Source: a virus
Virus genome (UHGV): UHGV-0302543
Reading direction: 5' to 3' (one strand)
Length of the DNA: 23,700 nucleotides
The notes under the pieces were generated by a model that saw only the letters and a program-made list of their open reading frames with translations, was not told where the DNA came from and searched no databases. Of this stretch, positions 2,511 through 21,800 are shown one piece after another (position 1 is the stretch's first letter; the number at the start of each line of letters is the position of its first letter). The position numbers and the translations under genes were made by a program.

Positions 2511-3852
2511 TGATCACCTCCACGCTGCGGCCACCCGGAACAAAAACCGGATCGGGGATGTTGTTTCTGCGGACAAAATACTGCCAGCGGCGGCTGTTGC
2601 CGGTGGCACGGTACAGCGTGACCAGTGCCGGTTCGGTGGTTCGCACCATGACCTGAAAAGCACCGGGAAGATGAACACTCCGCGTGGTTAAATCTTCTGT
2701 CAGTGCAAGCCCTGCATCACGTAATGCAAGGGCGGTGCCGGTATGGCCCTGTGCGGACAGATCCAGTACCTGTTGTTCCATGGCATCACTCAAATCCCGG
2801 TTGATACGCTGCACATCGGCAGAACTTTCCAGCCAGGCCAGTCCACCCGCACGGTCAGTATCCTGAACGTGCGTTGTATTCTGCCGGATGACCTGATCCA
2901 GCAGTTTCCCGACCGTCTGCGCCTGCGACACCAGGGTTGCACTCTGCATGACGCTCCGCAGCAGACGGATATTTTTCTGTGCCGCAGGCGTCAGACCAAT
3001 CAGGCGCTGCGGATCATCCTGTTCGCTGAGGGTGTAACGCAGGGAAGAAAGTGTGCGGTACAGCTGCGGCATTGCCTGCTCTGTCATGCTGTCACGGTTT
3101 GTGGTCAGGCTGCCGGACGGCCTTCCTGTCTTCCCGGTCAGTGACAGGGAAGGATTGCCGGGCAGTCCGGTCAGCACAGCAAATATTCCGGCCAGAGATT
3201 CAGCCATGCGACGGGGCGCATTAATCAGGGCGGCGGCATTGCCTTTCAGGGCGGTAAAACTGGCCGTAAAGGCACTGACATCCTGCACAATCCCCATCCC
3301 TGAAACGGCATTCTCCAGCGCATCAATCTTATCGCTGATGGTGTCGGTCATGGCCTGTACATCATGCAGACCGTCTGAAATCACCGTCCAGCCGTCTGAA
3401 AGCGTGTTAAACAGCTGATTCATTGCTGAACCGCTTTTCTGCTCCAGCGCAGCTGCCGTATCTTCTGCCACCGAAGGGGCGGTATCGTCAATGGCGGGGA
3501 TCACGTTGATCGTGAACTCAACCGTTCCCTGCTCGCTGGCGTTATAACGGCTTTCAAAGCTGTTTATCAGCACGTTTAACGTGCCGTAATCCGGGTGCAT
3601 CAGTTCACCGGCACCGGGTGCACGCAGCGCATCACGCAGGCGGCTTCGCTGTGTCTGAAGATCGTCTCCGGTCACCAGAACCGTGAATGTGAACTCCGGG
3701 AGTTTTGGCCCCAGATCATCCGCACCGCCGCTTTCACGCAGTGGGTATTCACGGCGCACAATGTTACGTCCGCCCCGTTCCCGCTGCTCCTGATAAACCA
3801 GGAACGGTACGCCACGAAAGGAGCCACGCCCCGGCGTGTCAGTAGAGGCCAT
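2494..3852 (-). CDS. DNA circularization protein (Mu gp43 / P-like)
   Basis: 452 aa directly downstream of the tape measure gene; size, position and composition consistent with Mu gpP family. Confidence 0.65.
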   Translation of the reverse strand: MASTDTPGRGSFRGVPFLVYQEQRERGGRNIVRREYPLRESGGADDLGPKLPEFTFTVLVTGDDLQTQRSRLRDALRAPGAGELMHPDYGTLNVLINSFESRYNASEQGTVEFTINVIPAIDDTAPSVAEDTAAALEQKSGSAMNQLFNTLSDGWTVISDGLHDVQAMTDTISDKIDALENAVSGMGIVQDVSAFTASFTALKGNAAALINAPRRMAESLAGIFAVLTGLPGNPSLSLTGKTGRPSGSLTTNRDSMTEQAMPQLYRTLSSLRYTLSEQDDPQRLIGLTPAAQKNIRLLRSVMQSATLVSQAQTVGKLLDQVIRQNTTHVQDTDRAGGLAWLESSADVQRINRDLSDAMEQQVLDLSAQGHTGTALALRDAGLALTEDLTTRSVHLPGAFQVMVRTTEPALVTLYRATGNSRRWQYFVRRNNIPDPVFVPGGRSVEVISEQQD

Positions 3853-15788: not shown

Positions 15789-17443
15789 CCCCGATCAAAT
15801 TTATGATATGCCTCATCGTCATCACGATAACCGCCCTCCATGGCCCGCGACCGCTCCGGCAGCGCCTGACAGGCTGATTCATCCAGGATGAAACCCTCCA
15901 TGTATGACGCCCGGTTTGCCATACAGAGTGCCACGGCAAAATCACCATGGCGGCGGGCGTTCGCAGCCGTTGCGTTCTGGTCCTTCGTGCGCCCCTTGTC
16001 GATTTGCGGGATACCATTCACCACCTTCACATGGCGCAAATCATCAAGCGTGGTCTGATGGCGGGCGACGAGGATATTCTGATCTTCAAACTCGGCTTTC
16101 AGTTTTGGCATCCACTCGCCGTACCACTTCGGCGACAACATCACGCAGTCGATGATGTCCGGGCCAAAGGCCAGCAGCGCGGCTTCTGCCAGATAGCCGC
16201 CGTTACCGGTGGCGTCAAACGCTGCACCAACCAGGGCCGGAACGCGGGTCAGGATGTACATCATCACCTGCTCCTGCTGGGCATACGGCAAGTTGCGCAG
16301 CTCCACGCGAAACACCTCACGTTTTGCCAGGGATTCGGTGATTTCCAGCAGCACAAAGCAGGAGAGGTCACCGGTGCGGGCAAAGTCTTCCCCGAAGCTG
16401 AAGCGGGAACGGGGATTTAACGCCTCTAAAAGCGGTTTTAAATGTTCTTCACACCAGGTTAAAACTTCCGATTCACGCAGCCATGCGGCACGGCTGATGA
16501 AGTCGTCCGGGGCTTCAAACGTCAGAATCGGGATGTCGCGGATCATCGCCATTTCAATAAGTGCGTGAGGAATATAGGCACCGCCGGATTTTTTCGGGAT
16601 ACAGCCGTATTCCTCGTCGGCATCCTCACGGGTCGGGGCGTTTTTGTAGAGATCATCACGCCACTTCTGCTCGCTTTCCGGTGACCATTCGCGGCCGGTG
16701 ACATAACAGATACGACGGTACAGCCCGTCCGCAATGGCATCATCCAGGGTTATGCGGTGGACGCTGTAATCCTTGCGTCCCTCGCGGGCTTCCTGAATGT
16801 ACTGATTAAACAGATTATCGACGCCGTTATGCGTGGAGATAATACGCACGCGCGCGCCCCACATGGTAAGCGCCATTGCCGCCTTGAGAAGCTCATCCAG
16901 TGACTCGTGGAACGCGGCTTCATCAATCACCACATCTCCCTGAAGGCCGCGCAGGTTTGACGGACGGGAAGACAGTGCCTGAATTTTGAATCCACTGTTC
17001 GGAAAGCGGATCATGTAGGTCAGAATTTCTTCTTTTTTATCCCGATCCCAGAAGGTCTGCTCATACACATCAGCATCTGCCAGCTGGTTAAAGGCACGGG
17101 AGAACAGGGCGCAGGCAGAAATATATTCCAGCGCCATCTCCTGCTTTGACCCCACATAAAACACATTGCGGCCACCGCGCCGCTTCGGTTTTGCAGCGGT
17201 AATGACGTTACGCCCGGCTTCCGCCCAGGTAAGCCCGGTACGGCGGGATTTTTCCGCGATGCAGACCTCGCTTTCATCCTCAAACCAGCGGGCCTGATAA
17301 TCCAGAAATACCGGCATATCACCGGGCAAATCAAGGCTGTCCGGCACATCCACGCCCAGCAGGGCTTTTTCACCGGCCAGATCAATTTTGCGGGTGGAGA
17401 CGGTATTCGTCAGTAAGGGGGAGAGTTCTTCGGCGTTATTCAT
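15779..17443 (-). CDS. terminase large subunit (Mu gp28-like)
   Basis: 554 aa; Walker-B-like VVIDEAAF and nuclease-like C-terminal region. Confidence 0.85.
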   Translation of the reverse strand: MNNAEELSPLLTNTVSTRKIDLAGEKALLGVDVPDSLDLPGDMPVFLDYQARWFEDESEVCIAEKSRRTGLTWAEAGRNVITAAKPKRRGGRNVFYVGSKQEMALEYISACALFSRAFNQLADADVYEQTFWDRDKKEEILTYMIRFPNSGFKIQALSSRPSNLRGLQGDVVIDEAAFHESLDELLKAAMALTMWGARVRIISTHNGVDNLFNQYIQEAREGRKDYSVHRITLDDAIADGLYRRICYVTGREWSPESEQKWRDDLYKNAPTREDADEEYGCIPKKSGGAYIPHALIEMAMIRDIPILTFEAPDDFISRAAWLRESEVLTWCEEHLKPLLEALNPRSRFSFGEDFARTGDLSCFVLLEITESLAKREVFRVELRNLPYAQQEQVMMYILTRVPALVGAAFDATGNGGYLAEAALLAFGPDIIDCVMLSPKWYGEWMPKLKAEFEDQNILVARHQTTLDDLRHVKVVNGIPQIDKGRTKDQNATAANARRHGDFAVALCMANRASYMEGFILDESACQALPERSRAMEGGYRDDDEAYHKFDRGCW

Positions 17444-18024
17444 CAGACTTTACCCAACAGAATCCCCTTAATACGGGACTCAAGCTGTTCACTCATCCCG
17501 TCCACGCCGCGCAGCTCGTCGGTGACCGCGTTTGCCATCTCTTCAGCAAATGCGGCCCGGATTTCTTTTTCACGCTTAATGCTGCGCTCGGCGGCACTTT
17601 CCGCACGCTGTGCTGACAGGAGGATGTCTTTGATGAGGCGCATATCCACGTCGCTGTCGCTGTTCAGAGATTCGGTCGCGGCACGCAGGCGGCGGTACAT
17701 CAGGGCGCGGGACATTTCCAGAATCAGTGCAGTGGTTTCACCGGTTGGCTTGTCCCCCAGTTCGGCCATCATGGCTTTTGTCTGCTCGCGTAAATCACGC
17801 AGGTTACGGGCAATCAGCTCATTACGGGAGGCTTCCCGGCTGATGGCCGCCGGTGAAAGCTGCTGCTCTTCCGGCAGGCCCACCTCACGGATCAGACGGT
17901 TGATTTCCTCGCGGATCTGGACCTGCGTCAGACGTTTTTCACGCAGCATTTCCAGCAGCGGCTTACGGATGCTGTCGGGGAGCAAATCCACCTTGCGTAC
18001 ACGACCACGCGTCGGCTTGTCCAT
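17443..18024 (-). CDS. Mu gp27-like protein (DUF3486-like; putative terminase small subunit)
   Basis: 193 aa starting MDKPTRGRVRKVDLLPDSIRKPLLEML; AAGGGGG RBS; immediately upstream of the large terminase. Confidence 0.6.
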   Translation of the reverse strand: MDKPTRGRVRKVDLLPDSIRKPLLEMLREKRLTQVQIREEINRLIREVGLPEEQQLSPAAISREASRNELIARNLRDLREQTKAMMAELGDKPTGETTALILEMSRALMYRRLRAATESLNSDSDVDMRLIKDILLSAQRAESAAERSIKREKEIRAAFAEEMANAVTDELRGVDGMSEQLESRIKGILLGKV

Positions 18025-18026
18025 CG

Positions 18027-18317
18027 TTACCCCCTTGCGCGTGGTTTCTTCACACCCGGAACGCAGGCCCGGCCTTCCGCCACATCCTGCCCACGACCGG
18101 TCAGTTCCGCGATGAAATAACCGTTAATCAGAACGCGTTTGCGCACCAGTCCCTGCTCGGCAAGCCAGGCAATGTGGGTGTGAACGGTGTCGCGGGACAC
18201 GCGGTGGCCGTAATCATCCAGACAGTCCTGGAGCACGGATTCACCCAGTTCACCGTTGTAATCTGCCAGCGACCGCAGAATGACCAGACGCTGATCTTCA
18301 GTAATGAAATCACTCAT
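18027..18317 (-). CDS. hypothetical small protein, winged-helix-like (Mu gp26 position)
   Basis: 96 aa, ATG start, position only. Confidence 0.4.
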   Translation of the reverse strand: MSDFITEDQRLVILRSLADYNGELGESVLQDCLDDYGHRVSRDTVHTHIAWLAEQGLVRKRVLINGYFIAELTGRGQDVAEGRACVPGVKKPRARG

Positions 18318-18622
18318 TGCGTTTTTTTCCTTACAGCCTGCTCCAGCAGCAGTTCGTTCTGATAGGAGACAGAGCGGAGCGTGGCGTTCGTGGTTTTCAG
18401 TTCACCCCGCAGGGTCACGATTTCCACATTCAGACGGTTGACCTCGGCTTCTGTCGGCAGTGACGACAGGCGGGTTTCCACCTTCTCAACGCGGTCGGAG
18501 AGTTTTTCAAAGGCCTCGCGGGGGACAAACGTTTTGCGCATCAGCGCCATGAATATCCCGCCAGCGGTTGCCGTCGCCGAAAGGATCGGCACAACATAAT
18601 CTTTAACGATGCTGACCCACAT
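18314..18622 (-). CDS. Mu gp25-like membrane protein (DUF2730-like); candidate releasin for the SAR endolysin
   Basis: 102 aa; N-terminal hydrophobic helix VVPILSATATAGGIFMALM followed by a coiled-coil-like region; position in the lysis cassette. Confidence 0.5.
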   Translation of the reverse strand: MWVSIVKDYVVPILSATATAGGIFMALMRKTFVPREAFEKLSDRVEKVETRLSSLPTEAEVNRLNVEIVTLRGELKTTNATLRSVSYQNELLLEQAVRKKTQ

Positions 18623-18827: not shown

Positions 18828-18840
18828 CATACCTTTTTCC

Positions 18841-19212: not shown

Positions 19213-19543
19213 TCGTGGCCGCCTCACTGATTTGTGAAATGAGTTGCAGGGTGCGTTGCTGGTTTGCCAGCACCAGACGGGCTTCGTCCCGTTCGCGCAC
19301 AAGCACATGATTATTGTCCTCAAGGCGCTGCGTCTTCTGGTGCATTCCCCATACCACGGCAGCCAGCACGCTCATCACCCCCAGCGCCGCCATACAGCCT
19401 CCGGCAATCAGGGCCGGTAAGGGATTATTCACCGCAGCCACAGCACACCCCGCAGCAGCACAACGGCACACAGCAGCGCAATCATGAGCGGTCGCCAGAA
19501 GCGGTTCAGACTTTCGGCAAATCGTAGCGACATAACCATTCAT
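19043..19543 (-). CDS. i-spanin (Rz-like); start codon uncertain
   Basis: Hydrophobic TM segment ALIAGGCMAALGVMSVLAAVVWG followed by a long coiled-coil-like periplasmic region with C-terminal cysteines; overlaps the endolysin 3' end. Confidence 0.55.
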   Translation of the reverse strand: MNGYVATICRKSEPLLATAHDCAAVCRCAAAGCAVAAVNNPLPALIAGGCMAALGVMSVLAAVVWGMHQKTQRLEDNNHVLVRERDEARLVLANQQRTLQLISQISEAATNEKQQNIQHSEGQQSVVRRSLAAVPAASAPVPDDVADRVRRAVCEIRACEAGADPR

Positions 19544-20006
19544 CCGCCGAACGGCGGGCCTCAAGACCGGGGAGTTTCACCCCCTTCGAATAAATCCAGC
19601 GGATGTACTGCTTACAGGACGCGGGCATCTGCCCGGCATTGATCAGGCGCAGAAGCGTGGAGTTGCGGAAGTTCGTTTCACCAGCCCAGAAGATCCACGA
19701 AGCCAGCGCCACCGTCTGACCACGGGTAAGCGGCACCTGAACACGCCGATCAATGGCCGCAAAGGCCCATTTCATGTCCTTTTCCAGTAGTTCCAGGCAT
19801 TCTTCATCCGTCAGGGTCATACCCGGTTTCACATCCGGGCCGGTATGGCCGTAACAGATGGTTGGTGTACCGGTGGGATCGATATACGTGGAGTTTTCTT
19901 TCCCTTCCCAGTAACCGGTGTAATGCGTGGTAATGGTGAACGTCCCGGCACCGGCCAGAACAAGGGCAATCAGCTTTTTACGCAGTGGTGCGGGGAGTTT
20001 TGGCAT
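19506..20006 (-). CDS. SAR endolysin (phage lysozyme with N-terminal signal-anchor-release domain, phage 21 R-like)
   Basis: N-terminal hydrophobic LIALVLAGAGTFTITT followed by the lysozyme core motifs EGKENSTYIDPTGTPTICYGHTG and TLLRLIN. Confidence 0.85.
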   Translation of the reverse strand: MPKLPAPLRKKLIALVLAGAGTFTITTHYTGYWEGKENSTYIDPTGTPTICYGHTGPDVKPGMTLTDEECLELLEKDMKWAFAAIDRRVQVPLTRGQTVALASWIFWAGETNFRNSTLLRLINAGQMPASCKQYIRWIYSKGVKLPGLEARRSADEWLCRYDLPKV

Positions 20007-20077: not shown

Positions 20078-20500
20078 TCAGAAAAGTGGCGGTTGCGTTC
20101 TTGCCAGATGCAGACGGCGCTGTTCGCGTATGACGGTATAAATCTGGGTTTCTGACATCCTGTAATGGCGGCGCAGGGTTTCAATTTTTTCGCCCTGGCT
20201 CCAGCGGGAAAAAATCTCATTATTGCGCAGTTCGGTGAAAAGGGATTCACCGACCGGGAGATAATAACCACGCCCGCCCATGTACCCGGCCTGTGCGGCC
20301 GCAACTTTACGGGCAAGCATTCCTGCCTGAGCAGGTTCAATCCCCTGACGGTGCAGTTCAGCACTGATCACATCAACCAGGTCCCGCAGCGTGCCGGGCC
20401 AGTTCTTTTTCAGCTCATCATCAGGAATGTCATCCAGACGGTCAATCAGCGCGTGCAGCTGTTCGCTGTCACCAAACATGCTCATCTGTGTTTCAGCCAT
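20078..20500 (-). CDS. mor: Mor/C-family transcriptional activator of middle/late genes
   Basis: 140 aa; C-terminal HTH region TLRRHYRMSETQIYTVIREQ typical of the Mor family; located between gemA-like and lysis genes. Confidence 0.8.
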   Translation of the reverse strand: MAETQMSMFGDSEQLHALIDRLDDIPDDELKKNWPGTLRDLVDVISAELHRQGIEPAQAGMLARKVAAAQAGYMGGRGYYLPVGESLFTELRNNEIFSRWSQGEKIETLRRHYRMSETQIYTVIREQRRLHLARTQPPLF

Positions 20501-20527: not shown

Positions 20528-20566
20528 GCAAGTTTAAAATAAAAATCCCGCGCTGTGGCGGGATTT
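20528..20566 (-). terminator. rho-independent terminator (minus strand) immediately upstream of mor; equivalent position to the Mu early terminator
   Basis: 9-bp stem aaatcccgc/gcgggattt with 6-nt loop; on the minus strand followed by TTTTTATTTTAAA. Confidence 0.6.
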
Positions 20567-20840
20567 AGAGGCGCTGTAAATCATAACCCGAAATGAGCTG
20601 TGTATTTATTGATCATTTTCCGGTGTAACTATATGATAAAGATCGTTTTTATTTTTAAAAATACAAACCCTGAAGGAGTTTTTCTTATCAAAAAGCTTGT
20701 GCATATTGCGGGTTATTGTTGTTTCATCAACATGAAAACCAATTATCCCAACTCTTAAAGCACACCAGGCTTGCTCCAGTGCAAAAACAAATAATTTCAG
20801 TCTGCCTGACAGCGTTCCACCGGAATAAAGGAAGATATCC

Positions 20841-21101
20841 ATGAAACAACCTCCATCTTTGCTTTTATCGTGCCCACCAGAACTGGCCCATGAACTCAAT
20901 GATCTGGCGAAAGAGTATAAACTTACAAATCATAATATAGAAGCAGCAACACTTAGTGCTGCCGGAAGCGATATTGTATTGATCGTTCTGGCCGCAGCTT
21001 CATGCGATGGGTTCTGGCAGGCATTAGCCAGTATGTTTCAGACGTGGTTACATCGTAAACCAACAAAACAAACACCCCCCGGAAAAGAAAGTTATTCGTA
21101 G
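20841..21101 (+). CDS. hypothetical protein of AT-rich moron, upstream part (ORF split at a C6 tract; +1 frame continues to the stop at 21262-21264)
   Basis: AAGGAAG RBS 7 nt upstream of the ATG; plus-strand orientation opposite to the phage genes; low-GC codon usage; the +1 frame reads ...VIRSVIVRSWEHYQETTKQTEFYNFDADELAKLIALYEKPDETIGCIIPSETEIQEK with no start codon of its own. Confidence 0.5.
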   Translation: MKQPPSLLLSCPPELAHELNDLAKEYKLTNHNIEAATLSAAGSDIVLIVLAAASCDGFWQALASMFQTWLHRKPTKQTPPGKESYS

Positions 21102-21249
21102 CGTCATTGTTCGTAGCTGGGAACACTATCAGGAGACAACTAAACAAACTGAATTTTATAACTTTGATGCTGATGAGCTGGCTAAATTGATAGCGTTATA
21201 TGAAAAACCAGATGAAACAATTGGTTGCATAATCCCGTCAGAAACGGAA

Positions 21250-21287
21250 ATTCAGGAAAAATAAAATCCCGCACTGTGGCGGGATTT
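21250..21287. terminator. second copy of the terminator hairpin (aaatcccgc-actgtg-gcgggattt), directly after the gemA-like stop on the minus strand and after the moron ORF on the plus strand
   Basis: Same stem as at 20543..20566 with one loop difference; A-run on one side and T-run on the other, so potentially bidirectional. Confidence 0.6.
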
Positions 21288-21290
21288 GGG

Positions 21291-21800
21291 TTAACAGGGG
21301 AATGATTTTTCATACAGCCTGCAAACGCGCTCATAACTCATCACTGCACGCTCCGACATATCCAGGGCTGCCAGCATTTTGCGGCGGTGCCAGCGTTTGA
21401 GACGCTCCAGCACATCAGAGGCCAGCTCGGGGTGTTGCTCCAGCCACTGCCAGTTAGCCACACCTTCGCCGCCGTTCTGCGTGGCCGTCTGCGATTTCAC
21501 CCAGCGGTTAAGGGCCGTTTCCGCACCATCAGAAATAAAGCCCTGCCGGTGCATCACTTTCCAGATGGCGCGAATTTTGGCGGTCACCGTACCCGGCTTT
21601 AAGGCCCGGTTAACCGGTTTCTGACGCACTTTAAAACCGCGTTTTTTGAAAACATCCAGTACGCGGGATAACTCATCCGGTGACATATCCCGGCAACTGG
21701 CTTTACCGGTGGCTGCCAGCAGTGCGGATGTATAGGTTTCATCATCCAGAGCAAGCTCGCGTTTTGCCACATGAATGGCAGATATCAGTTTTCCTCTCAT
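21291..21800 (-). CDS. gemA: GemA-like protein (Mu gp16 family)
   Basis: 169 aa starting MRGKLISAIHVAKRELALDDETYTSALLAATGKASCRDMSPDELSRVLDVFKKRGF, matching the conserved GemA/gp16 N-terminal pattern. Confidence 0.75.
   Translation of the reverse strand: MRGKLISAIHVAKRELALDDETYTSALLAATGKASCRDMSPDELSRVLDVFKKRGFKVRQKPVNRALKPGTVTAKIRAIWKVMHRQGFISDGAETALNRWVKSQTATQNGGEGVANWQWLEQHPELASDVLERLKRWHRRKMLAALDMSERAVMSYERVCRLYEKSFPC

Follow-up and report, generated by a model that had tools for sequence, protein, structure and literature searches.

The open reading frame that is split by a run of six C in the 23,700-nucleotide stretch of DNA analysed here (the window) is very probably a genuine, heritable +1 frameshift allele of a 140-amino-acid ORFan cargo gene of an Escherichia coli Mu-like prophage, and not a regulated or reversible device. 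The window represents a Mu-like transposable prophage that is read on the minus strand, and prophages residing in E. coli chromosomes match it at 99-99.9% identity. The split reading frame is located between gemA and mor, on the strand opposite to both of them. The features of the region are collected in Table 1.

Table 1. Features of the gemA-mor region; positions are those of the window unless a locus is named.
Feature	Position	Strand	Basis and remarks
Lysozyme gene	20006..19506	-	Mu-like gene order; head genes further left
Mor-family transcription activator gene	20078..20500	-	PF08765 Mor
Left boundary hairpin, AAATCCCGC-N6-GCGGGATTT	20543..20566	-	Form of an intrinsic terminator, followed by TTATTTT
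Inserted cargo between the hairpin copies	20569..21263	+	AT-rich DNA, about 720 bp
Antisense 78-aa ORF (WP_024192020.1)	20606..20842	-	Annotated by PGAP; putative gene
Sigma-70 promoter-like site, TTGATC-N17-TATGAT	20609..20637	+	Match to consensus and conservation; about 200 nt 5' of the moron ATG
Shine-Dalgarno-like AAGGAAG	20828..20834	+	6 nt 5' of the ATG; evident from the sequence
Truncated ORF of the C6 allele	20841..21101	+	Window sequence and ORF list; 86 aa
Direct repeats ACAAAACAAAC and ACTAAACAAAC	21062-21072; 21137-21147		Both encode TKQT; flank the C tract
C6 homopolymer, site of the frameshift	21075..21080	+	One C more than in the common C5 allele
3' part of the ancestral 140-aa ORF (residues 81-140 and TAA)	21082..21264	+	+1 frame; untranslated in the C6 allele
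Right boundary hairpin, 9-bp stem	21264..21287	-	Directly past the stop codons of gemA (minus) and of the moron (plus)
GemA/gp16-family gene	21291..21800	-	PF06252 GemA; contains the linked SNP 21497
Boundary hairpin in other loci	L005 1545-1570 and 2190-2215; L035 and L036 about 2545-2570		
Contig ends at the tract	L031 5508; L032 4569; L033 2327		Three E. coli assemblies

The split reading frame and its relatives

Sequence and ORF list agree with the earlier note in that the reading frame starting with the ATG at 20841 ends shortly after the six-C run, the stop codon being situated 21 nt past it. The predicted 86-aa product consists of residues 1-80 of the intact protein and an out-of-frame tail, GKESYS, that is followed by TAG at 21099-21101. 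The +1 frame had been described as open up to a stop codon that abuts the terminator hairpin, and this proved to be correct: it is free of stops from about position 21027 to the TAA at 21262-21264, and the hairpin spans 21264-21287. The frame, for which no start codon of its own had been noted, has a TTG at 21187 as its only one. Two figures have to be corrected. Counted from EKK, the downstream frame comprises 60 and not 55 codons, and fusion of the two pieces by removal of one C yields an ORF of 140 and not of about 137 aa. In the C5 allele the tract is read as CCC CCG and encodes Pro79-Pro80. The segment for residues 81-140 (21082..21264) is identical to the C-terminal part of WP_001536796.1. 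The occurrence of a C6 homopolymer as such lies within chance, with four C6 runs seen in the window and about 12 expected from base composition. What is non-random is that the indel that separates the window from its intact relatives falls exactly in such a run.

Comparison of homologous ORFs for tract length and reading frame, which the earlier note had proposed as a check, revealed relatives with five C, an intact 140-aa ORF and a conserved downstream frame. DNA similarity or pattern searches yielded nine other copies of the locus, eight of which combine C5 with one uninterrupted ORF of 140 aa. In four complete E. coli genomes (one from Switzerland, two from China and one from Japan), the extra C is the sole difference over 471 nt (20830-21300), and each of the four carries one annotated 140-aa CDS, RefSeq WP_001536796.1, with the description hypothetical protein. 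An uninterrupted 140-aa CDS that extends over both pieces is found in loci L001-L004, L006, L007, L009 and L020-L029. A DNA pattern scan that permitted three to nine bases in the tract retrieved C5 from one IMG/VR viral contig and two metagenome contigs, and C6 from metagenome contig OGFJ01000435.1, in which 4.4 kb contain 30 SNPs relative to the window. Scans of genome-contig collections, conducted with the tract pattern and with gemA relatives, returned nothing usable.

A diverged allele is that of L030/P0003. It is 3% diverged, with 13 nucleotide differences (six synonymous and seven non-synonymous), and reads CCTCC at the tract in the same frame. The 140-aa frame is kept in spite of the interrupted run. 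Conservation therefore does not extend to the homopolymer, and the long frame represents the ancestral state. The coding status of the 3' part is supported by synonymous changes in L030 (codons 88 and 123).

By exact protein look-up, 27 contigs (45 index blocks) encode the 86-aa product, compared with 524 contigs (1046 index blocks) for the 140-aa product. The C6 allele makes up about 4-5% of public copies, and among more than 1000 occurrences about 95% have an intact long ORF. The protein look-up gave access to another ten C6 loci, each with at least six mismatches to the window, which brings the total to 12 copies, i.e. the window and 11 other non-identical loci. The closest relative of the window in this region, L015, is itself a C6 locus and shows six mismatches in 4487 nt and zero gaps. 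Four C6 prophages have a left end that could be reached, and these reside at four different chromosomal insertion sites. The phage bearing C6 has therefore been mobile and has lysogenised repeatedly, and it is not impaired by the truncation.

Origin and stability of the sixth C

The earlier note had offered three explanations for the homopolymer at the frame junction, namely a sequencing error, a recent inactivating indel and a slippage switch. The first one would mean that the sixth C arose during sequencing or assembly of the source of the window and that the true state is C5. Such an error is very unlikely. The same C6 recurs in no fewer than 11 further non-identical assemblies (NCBI, ENA, JGI and Logan), among them the nearest relative L015, and it always occurs together with the same linked SNP state, which is found in the window as well. 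The one point in favor of an error is a private T5 versus T4 at position 18834 of the window, a difference typical of error-prone homopolymer calling. At this position, which belongs to a short spacer between lysC-like and traR/dksA-like genes, eight relatives including two C6 loci have T4, and no ORF is shifted by the additional T. Whether due to a private mutation or to a miscalled homopolymer, this difference leaves the argument for C6 unaffected.

The linked site just mentioned is position 21497 in gemA, 422 bp away from the tract. All 12 C6 copies have T here, while the C5 copies comprise five with T and 10-11 with G (Fisher p about 3e-4, with the C6 sample stemming from a protein look-up and being neither unbiased nor phylogenetically independent). 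The T at 21497 also occurs in prophages without the moron, and C6 is absent from the derived G clade that holds most of the C5 copies. Restriction of C6 to the T background is expected for one or a few origins and not for frequent recurrent slippage. The four-gamete condition is violated by the tract in combination with either of two SNPs, 21387 and 21482. This requires either recombination, a frequent process in such mosaic phages, or recurrent change, which could have occurred at the tract itself. With regard to a single versus a recurrent origin of C6, the flanking haplotypes contain too little variation near the tract and too much recombination for a firm tree.

A switch in the proper sense would be a slipped-strand contingency locus, at which C5 and C6 interconvert at high frequency and the cargo gene is turned ON and OFF within a lysogen population. 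The position of the frameshift exactly in a homopolymer, the natural occurrence of both C5 and C6, the homoplasy with nearby SNPs and the breakage of three assemblies at the tract would all fit such a device. The tract itself, however, does not exceed five or six residues, whereas phasome surveys apply a cut-off of at least seven to G/C tracts, and this cut-off includes tracts with a mutability below 1e-5 that are too stable for efficient switching (PMC6321876). Furthermore, no length other than C5 and C6 has been recorded. Exact look-up among about 15 billion proteins gave no match to the predicted products of C3, C4, C7, C8 and C9 alleles, and C6 on an allele of the diverged L030 type was not found in the same look-up either. 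C6 is limited to one SNP background, and the CCTCC of the diverged allele shows that the tract has not been maintained as a device. Thus, the proposed slippage switch is unsupported and we regard a contingency locus as very improbable.

The broken assemblies deserve a closer look in this context. Contigs from three independent E. coli assemblies break off within the tract or immediately past it (...CCCCC, ...CCCCCC and ...CCCCCGGA, respectively). This suggests that C5 and C6 coexist in those samples, be it via double lysogeny or via heterogeneity. The presence of two related prophages in one genome would be the likelier cause, because the broken contigs are short (2.3-5.5 kb) and their other ends also reside inside phage genes.

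A further explanation would be +1 ribosomal frameshifting on the C6 run, with tRNA-Pro slipping on CCC-C such that an 86-aa and a 140-aa protein are produced by design. A slip at the first CCC in ACA CCC(C) CCG GAA would indeed restore the exact wild-type sequence TPPEKK, and CC[C/U]-[C/U] belongs to the motifs on which ribosomes are known to slip, +1 errors reaching up to about 1% at codon 2, the most shift-prone position, and being far rarer elsewhere (PMC4519876). In our case the tract occupies codons 79-80 and is thus distant from that position. Programmed sites are conserved across homologues, whereas here about 95% of the copies are unshifted and the diverged allele lacks CCC-C altogether. 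The 0-frame codon past the run is an ordinary GGA, that is neither a stop nor a hungry or rare codon, and no Shine-Dalgarno-like stimulator is seen upstream when the sequence is read by eye. Frameshifting by design is extremely unlikely, and CCC-C slippage in the C6 allele would at most be a background leak and not recoding. A mixed form is conceivable in which the C5/C6 run acts as a low-rate reversible ON/OFF toggle of the prophage cargo gene, perhaps supplemented by a trickle of full-length protein via leaky +1 decoding of CCC-C. Such a toggle retains a slim chance because three assemblies break at the tract and because of the homoplasy with nearby SNPs.

We therefore return to an inactivating indel as the preferred reading. 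C5 relatives with an intact 140-aa ORF and a conserved downstream frame bear it out, though not the attribute recent, since C6 is present in at least 12 non-identical assemblies and at four insertion sites. The locus shows what characterizes a frameshift null allele at the sequence level: intact relatives, a single indel at the junction and a lesion that is reproduced in independent data. The hallmarks of a phase-variable locus, i.e. a sufficient tract length, a length spectrum independent of haplotype and tract conservation in the diverged allele, are lacking. In the course of events that we propose, the sixth C would have been added to the common five-C allele by replication slippage, on one or very few haplotype backgrounds. 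Translation of the C6 allele would run out of frame past residue 80 and terminate at 21099-21101, leaving a protein without the acidic C-terminal 60 residues, the function of which is probably lost. The allele would then have spread with the phage through new lysogenisation and recombination, alongside other, independently arisen null alleles of an accessory gene that is dispensable.

The C6 event is ordinary gene decay of an already catalogued kind, and both alleles are present in public databases as hypothetical proteins. For annotation this means that public 86-aa hypothetical protein records represent a truncated allele of WP_001536796.1 and that the locus should be treated as a frameshifted 140-aa gene.

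The cargo gene and its slot between gemA and mor

The genes that flank the split ORF are direct neighbors in relatives. In 25 of 28 IMG/VR loci, as well as in E. coli STEC299 and JKHS016, gemA and mor are separated by a spacer of just 68-70 bp that contains a single hairpin. In the window, the cargo has a GC content of 39%, whereas mor and gemA have 54% and the window as a whole 56%, and the GC3 of the cargo amounts to 0.33 as compared to 0.56. The T-run of both hairpin copies lies on the minus strand, opposite to the moron. E. coli M3 and one IMG/VR contig (L068) carry an unrelated 113-aa ORF in the same slot, in the same orientation and with the same hairpin junctions. The -35 and -10 hexamers of the M3 cassette are identical to those of the window, while the spacer between them has diverged. 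An IS4-like element is situated in the gemA-mor slot of L062.

The label moron that had been given to the split ORF is borne out by the adjacency of its flanking genes in relatives, the contrast in GC content and, as putative signals of its own, the promoter-like site, the Shine-Dalgarno sequence and the boundary hairpins. An insert between gemA and mor with its own predicted signals, together with an alternative cassette in the same slot, justifies the term. Judged by sequence, the gemA-mor junction looks like a site of cassette exchange at the hairpin. This architecture is more interesting than the frameshift, as a hairpin-bounded junction appears to take up alternative AT-rich cassettes with a common promoter. 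It also provides a defined spot in which to seek lysogenic-conversion or defence cargo in Mu-like prophages.

The 140-aa protein itself resembles nothing in the resources that we consulted. Pfam, PHROGs, PADLOC and NCBIfam gave sub-threshold noise only, and neither a PDB sequence search nor tblastn against 50,697 phage records returned a match. A word-indexed search (5.8 billion proteins) and an exhaustive HMMER search (1.84 billion representatives) both retrieved just the protein's own cluster and its fragments. On the nucleotide level, Rfam found nothing near any gathering score between 20400 and 21400. Single-sequence AlphaFold yields an all-helical model of low confidence (mean pLDDT 47). 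The protein features a hydrophobic stretch at about residues 35-66 (maximum of 1.85 in a 19-residue Kyte-Doolittle window) and an acidic C-terminal third. The hydrophobic part is kept in the 86-aa truncation and the acidic part is gone. Homology to the alternative cargo of M3 was considered and rejected (BLASTP E 0.03 over 24 residues, hhalign probability 1.8%), with the two proteins having in common only a central motif, A-x-LS ... W-x-A ... W-x-x-R.

Zero homologues outside its own cluster at 50% identity among the 1.84 billion representatives, the lack of any Pfam, PHROG, PADLOC, NCBIfam or PDB match and the poor AlphaFold model would be compatible with the 140-aa ORF not being a real gene, in which case the split would be inconsequential. 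The seven non-synonymous versus six synonymous differences between the alleles likewise point at mild constraint only. On the other hand, the ORF is preceded by a good Shine-Dalgarno sequence and by a promoter-like site that is conserved in the alternative cassette, and a terminator-like hairpin is present at its stop codon. It is intact not only in the large majority of occurrences but also in the 3%-diverged allele, and in other prophages the slot is occupied by a comparable cargo ORF that is laid out in the same way. A non-coding nature of the ORF thus has a small chance of being correct. By position and orientation, the 140-aa protein would most plausibly be the product of a prophage-expressed gene for lysogenic conversion, exclusion or defence.

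Several other lesions were noted in the cargo ORF. L038 and L040 carry nonsense mutations, G42 to TGA (window 20964 G>T) and W59 to TAG (window 21016 G>A), respectively. L037 contains an insertion of the IS5 family (212-1192), and in L039 the ORF is truncated at its 5' end. In L034, a low-coverage metagenome contig, a precise in-frame deletion of 75 nt (25 aa) between AAACAAAC repeats has removed the tract. The lesion pattern is that of a decaying dispensable accessory gene, with the homopolymer indel as the commonest lesion. The ORFan cargo gene is dispensable for the phage, given that several kinds of null alleles circulate and that C6 has reached new insertion sites.

The region upstream of the moron contains an antisense ORF of 78 aa, which is present on 352 contigs. 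A GGAGG motif is located 7 nt upstream of it, and the ATG codons of this ORF and of the moron overlap in a CATG palindrome. Compared with the diverged allele L030, the antisense ORF has four differences, three of which are synonymous. A 64-aa ORF is found in the equivalent back-to-back position of the M3 cassette, and no significant similarity was detected between the 78-aa and the 64-aa ORF. The 78-aa stretch may be either a gene or the 5' leader of the moron.

Two observations concern other parts of these prophages. A Kil-family gene of loci L010-L029, situated outside the window at about 15.0-15.7 kb in locus coordinates, encodes 208-210 aa in some cases and 75-84 aa in many, suggesting that this gene is often truncated in resident prophages. 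In L012, a C6 prophage, an IS (DDE_Tnp_1) at 17360-18328 replaces the transposase A gene of relatives, and this prophage copy is probably defective.

Comparison with known systems

Like phage morons, the cargo described here is an extra gene that is inserted between genes adjacent in relatives and oriented against the phage operon, and it comes with a Shine-Dalgarno sequence, a promoter-like site and a terminal hairpin. It differs from them in that a copy of the resident gemA terminator hairpin is found at either boundary. In addition, the slot harbors unrelated cargo with the same promoter hexamers at the same junctions in other prophages, pointing at cassette exchange.

SSR contingency genes are rare in E. 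coli. With those of Neisseria, Haemophilus and Campylobacter and with the poly-G tract of Klebsiella rmpA, the locus shares a G/C homopolymer in a coding region, the length of which sets the reading frame. In contrast to these systems, the tract has five or six residues instead of at least seven and exists in two lengths, it is not conserved in the diverged allele and its OFF length is confined to one haplotype background. As an SSR contingency locus of an E. coli prophage, a true switch would be unusual, and the evidence speaks against a switch.

Programmed +1 frameshifting of the prfB type and non-programmed slippage of tRNA-Pro on CCC-C are resembled insofar as the C6 allele contains CCC-C and a +1 slip would restore the wild-type sequence. 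Compared to prfB-type frameshifting, the arrangement is not conserved, there is neither a stimulatory stop or rare codon nor a visible upstream Shine-Dalgarno-like element, and the unshifted allele is the norm.

The closest correspondence is that with frameshift pseudogenes or null alleles. Here too, we find intact near-identical orthologues, one additional base in a homopolymer at the junction, stable inheritance and sibling null alleles. Nothing material sets the split ORF apart from this class, in which it is distinguished by the occurrence of C6 on several phage backbones and at several insertion sites and is thus not private to one strain.
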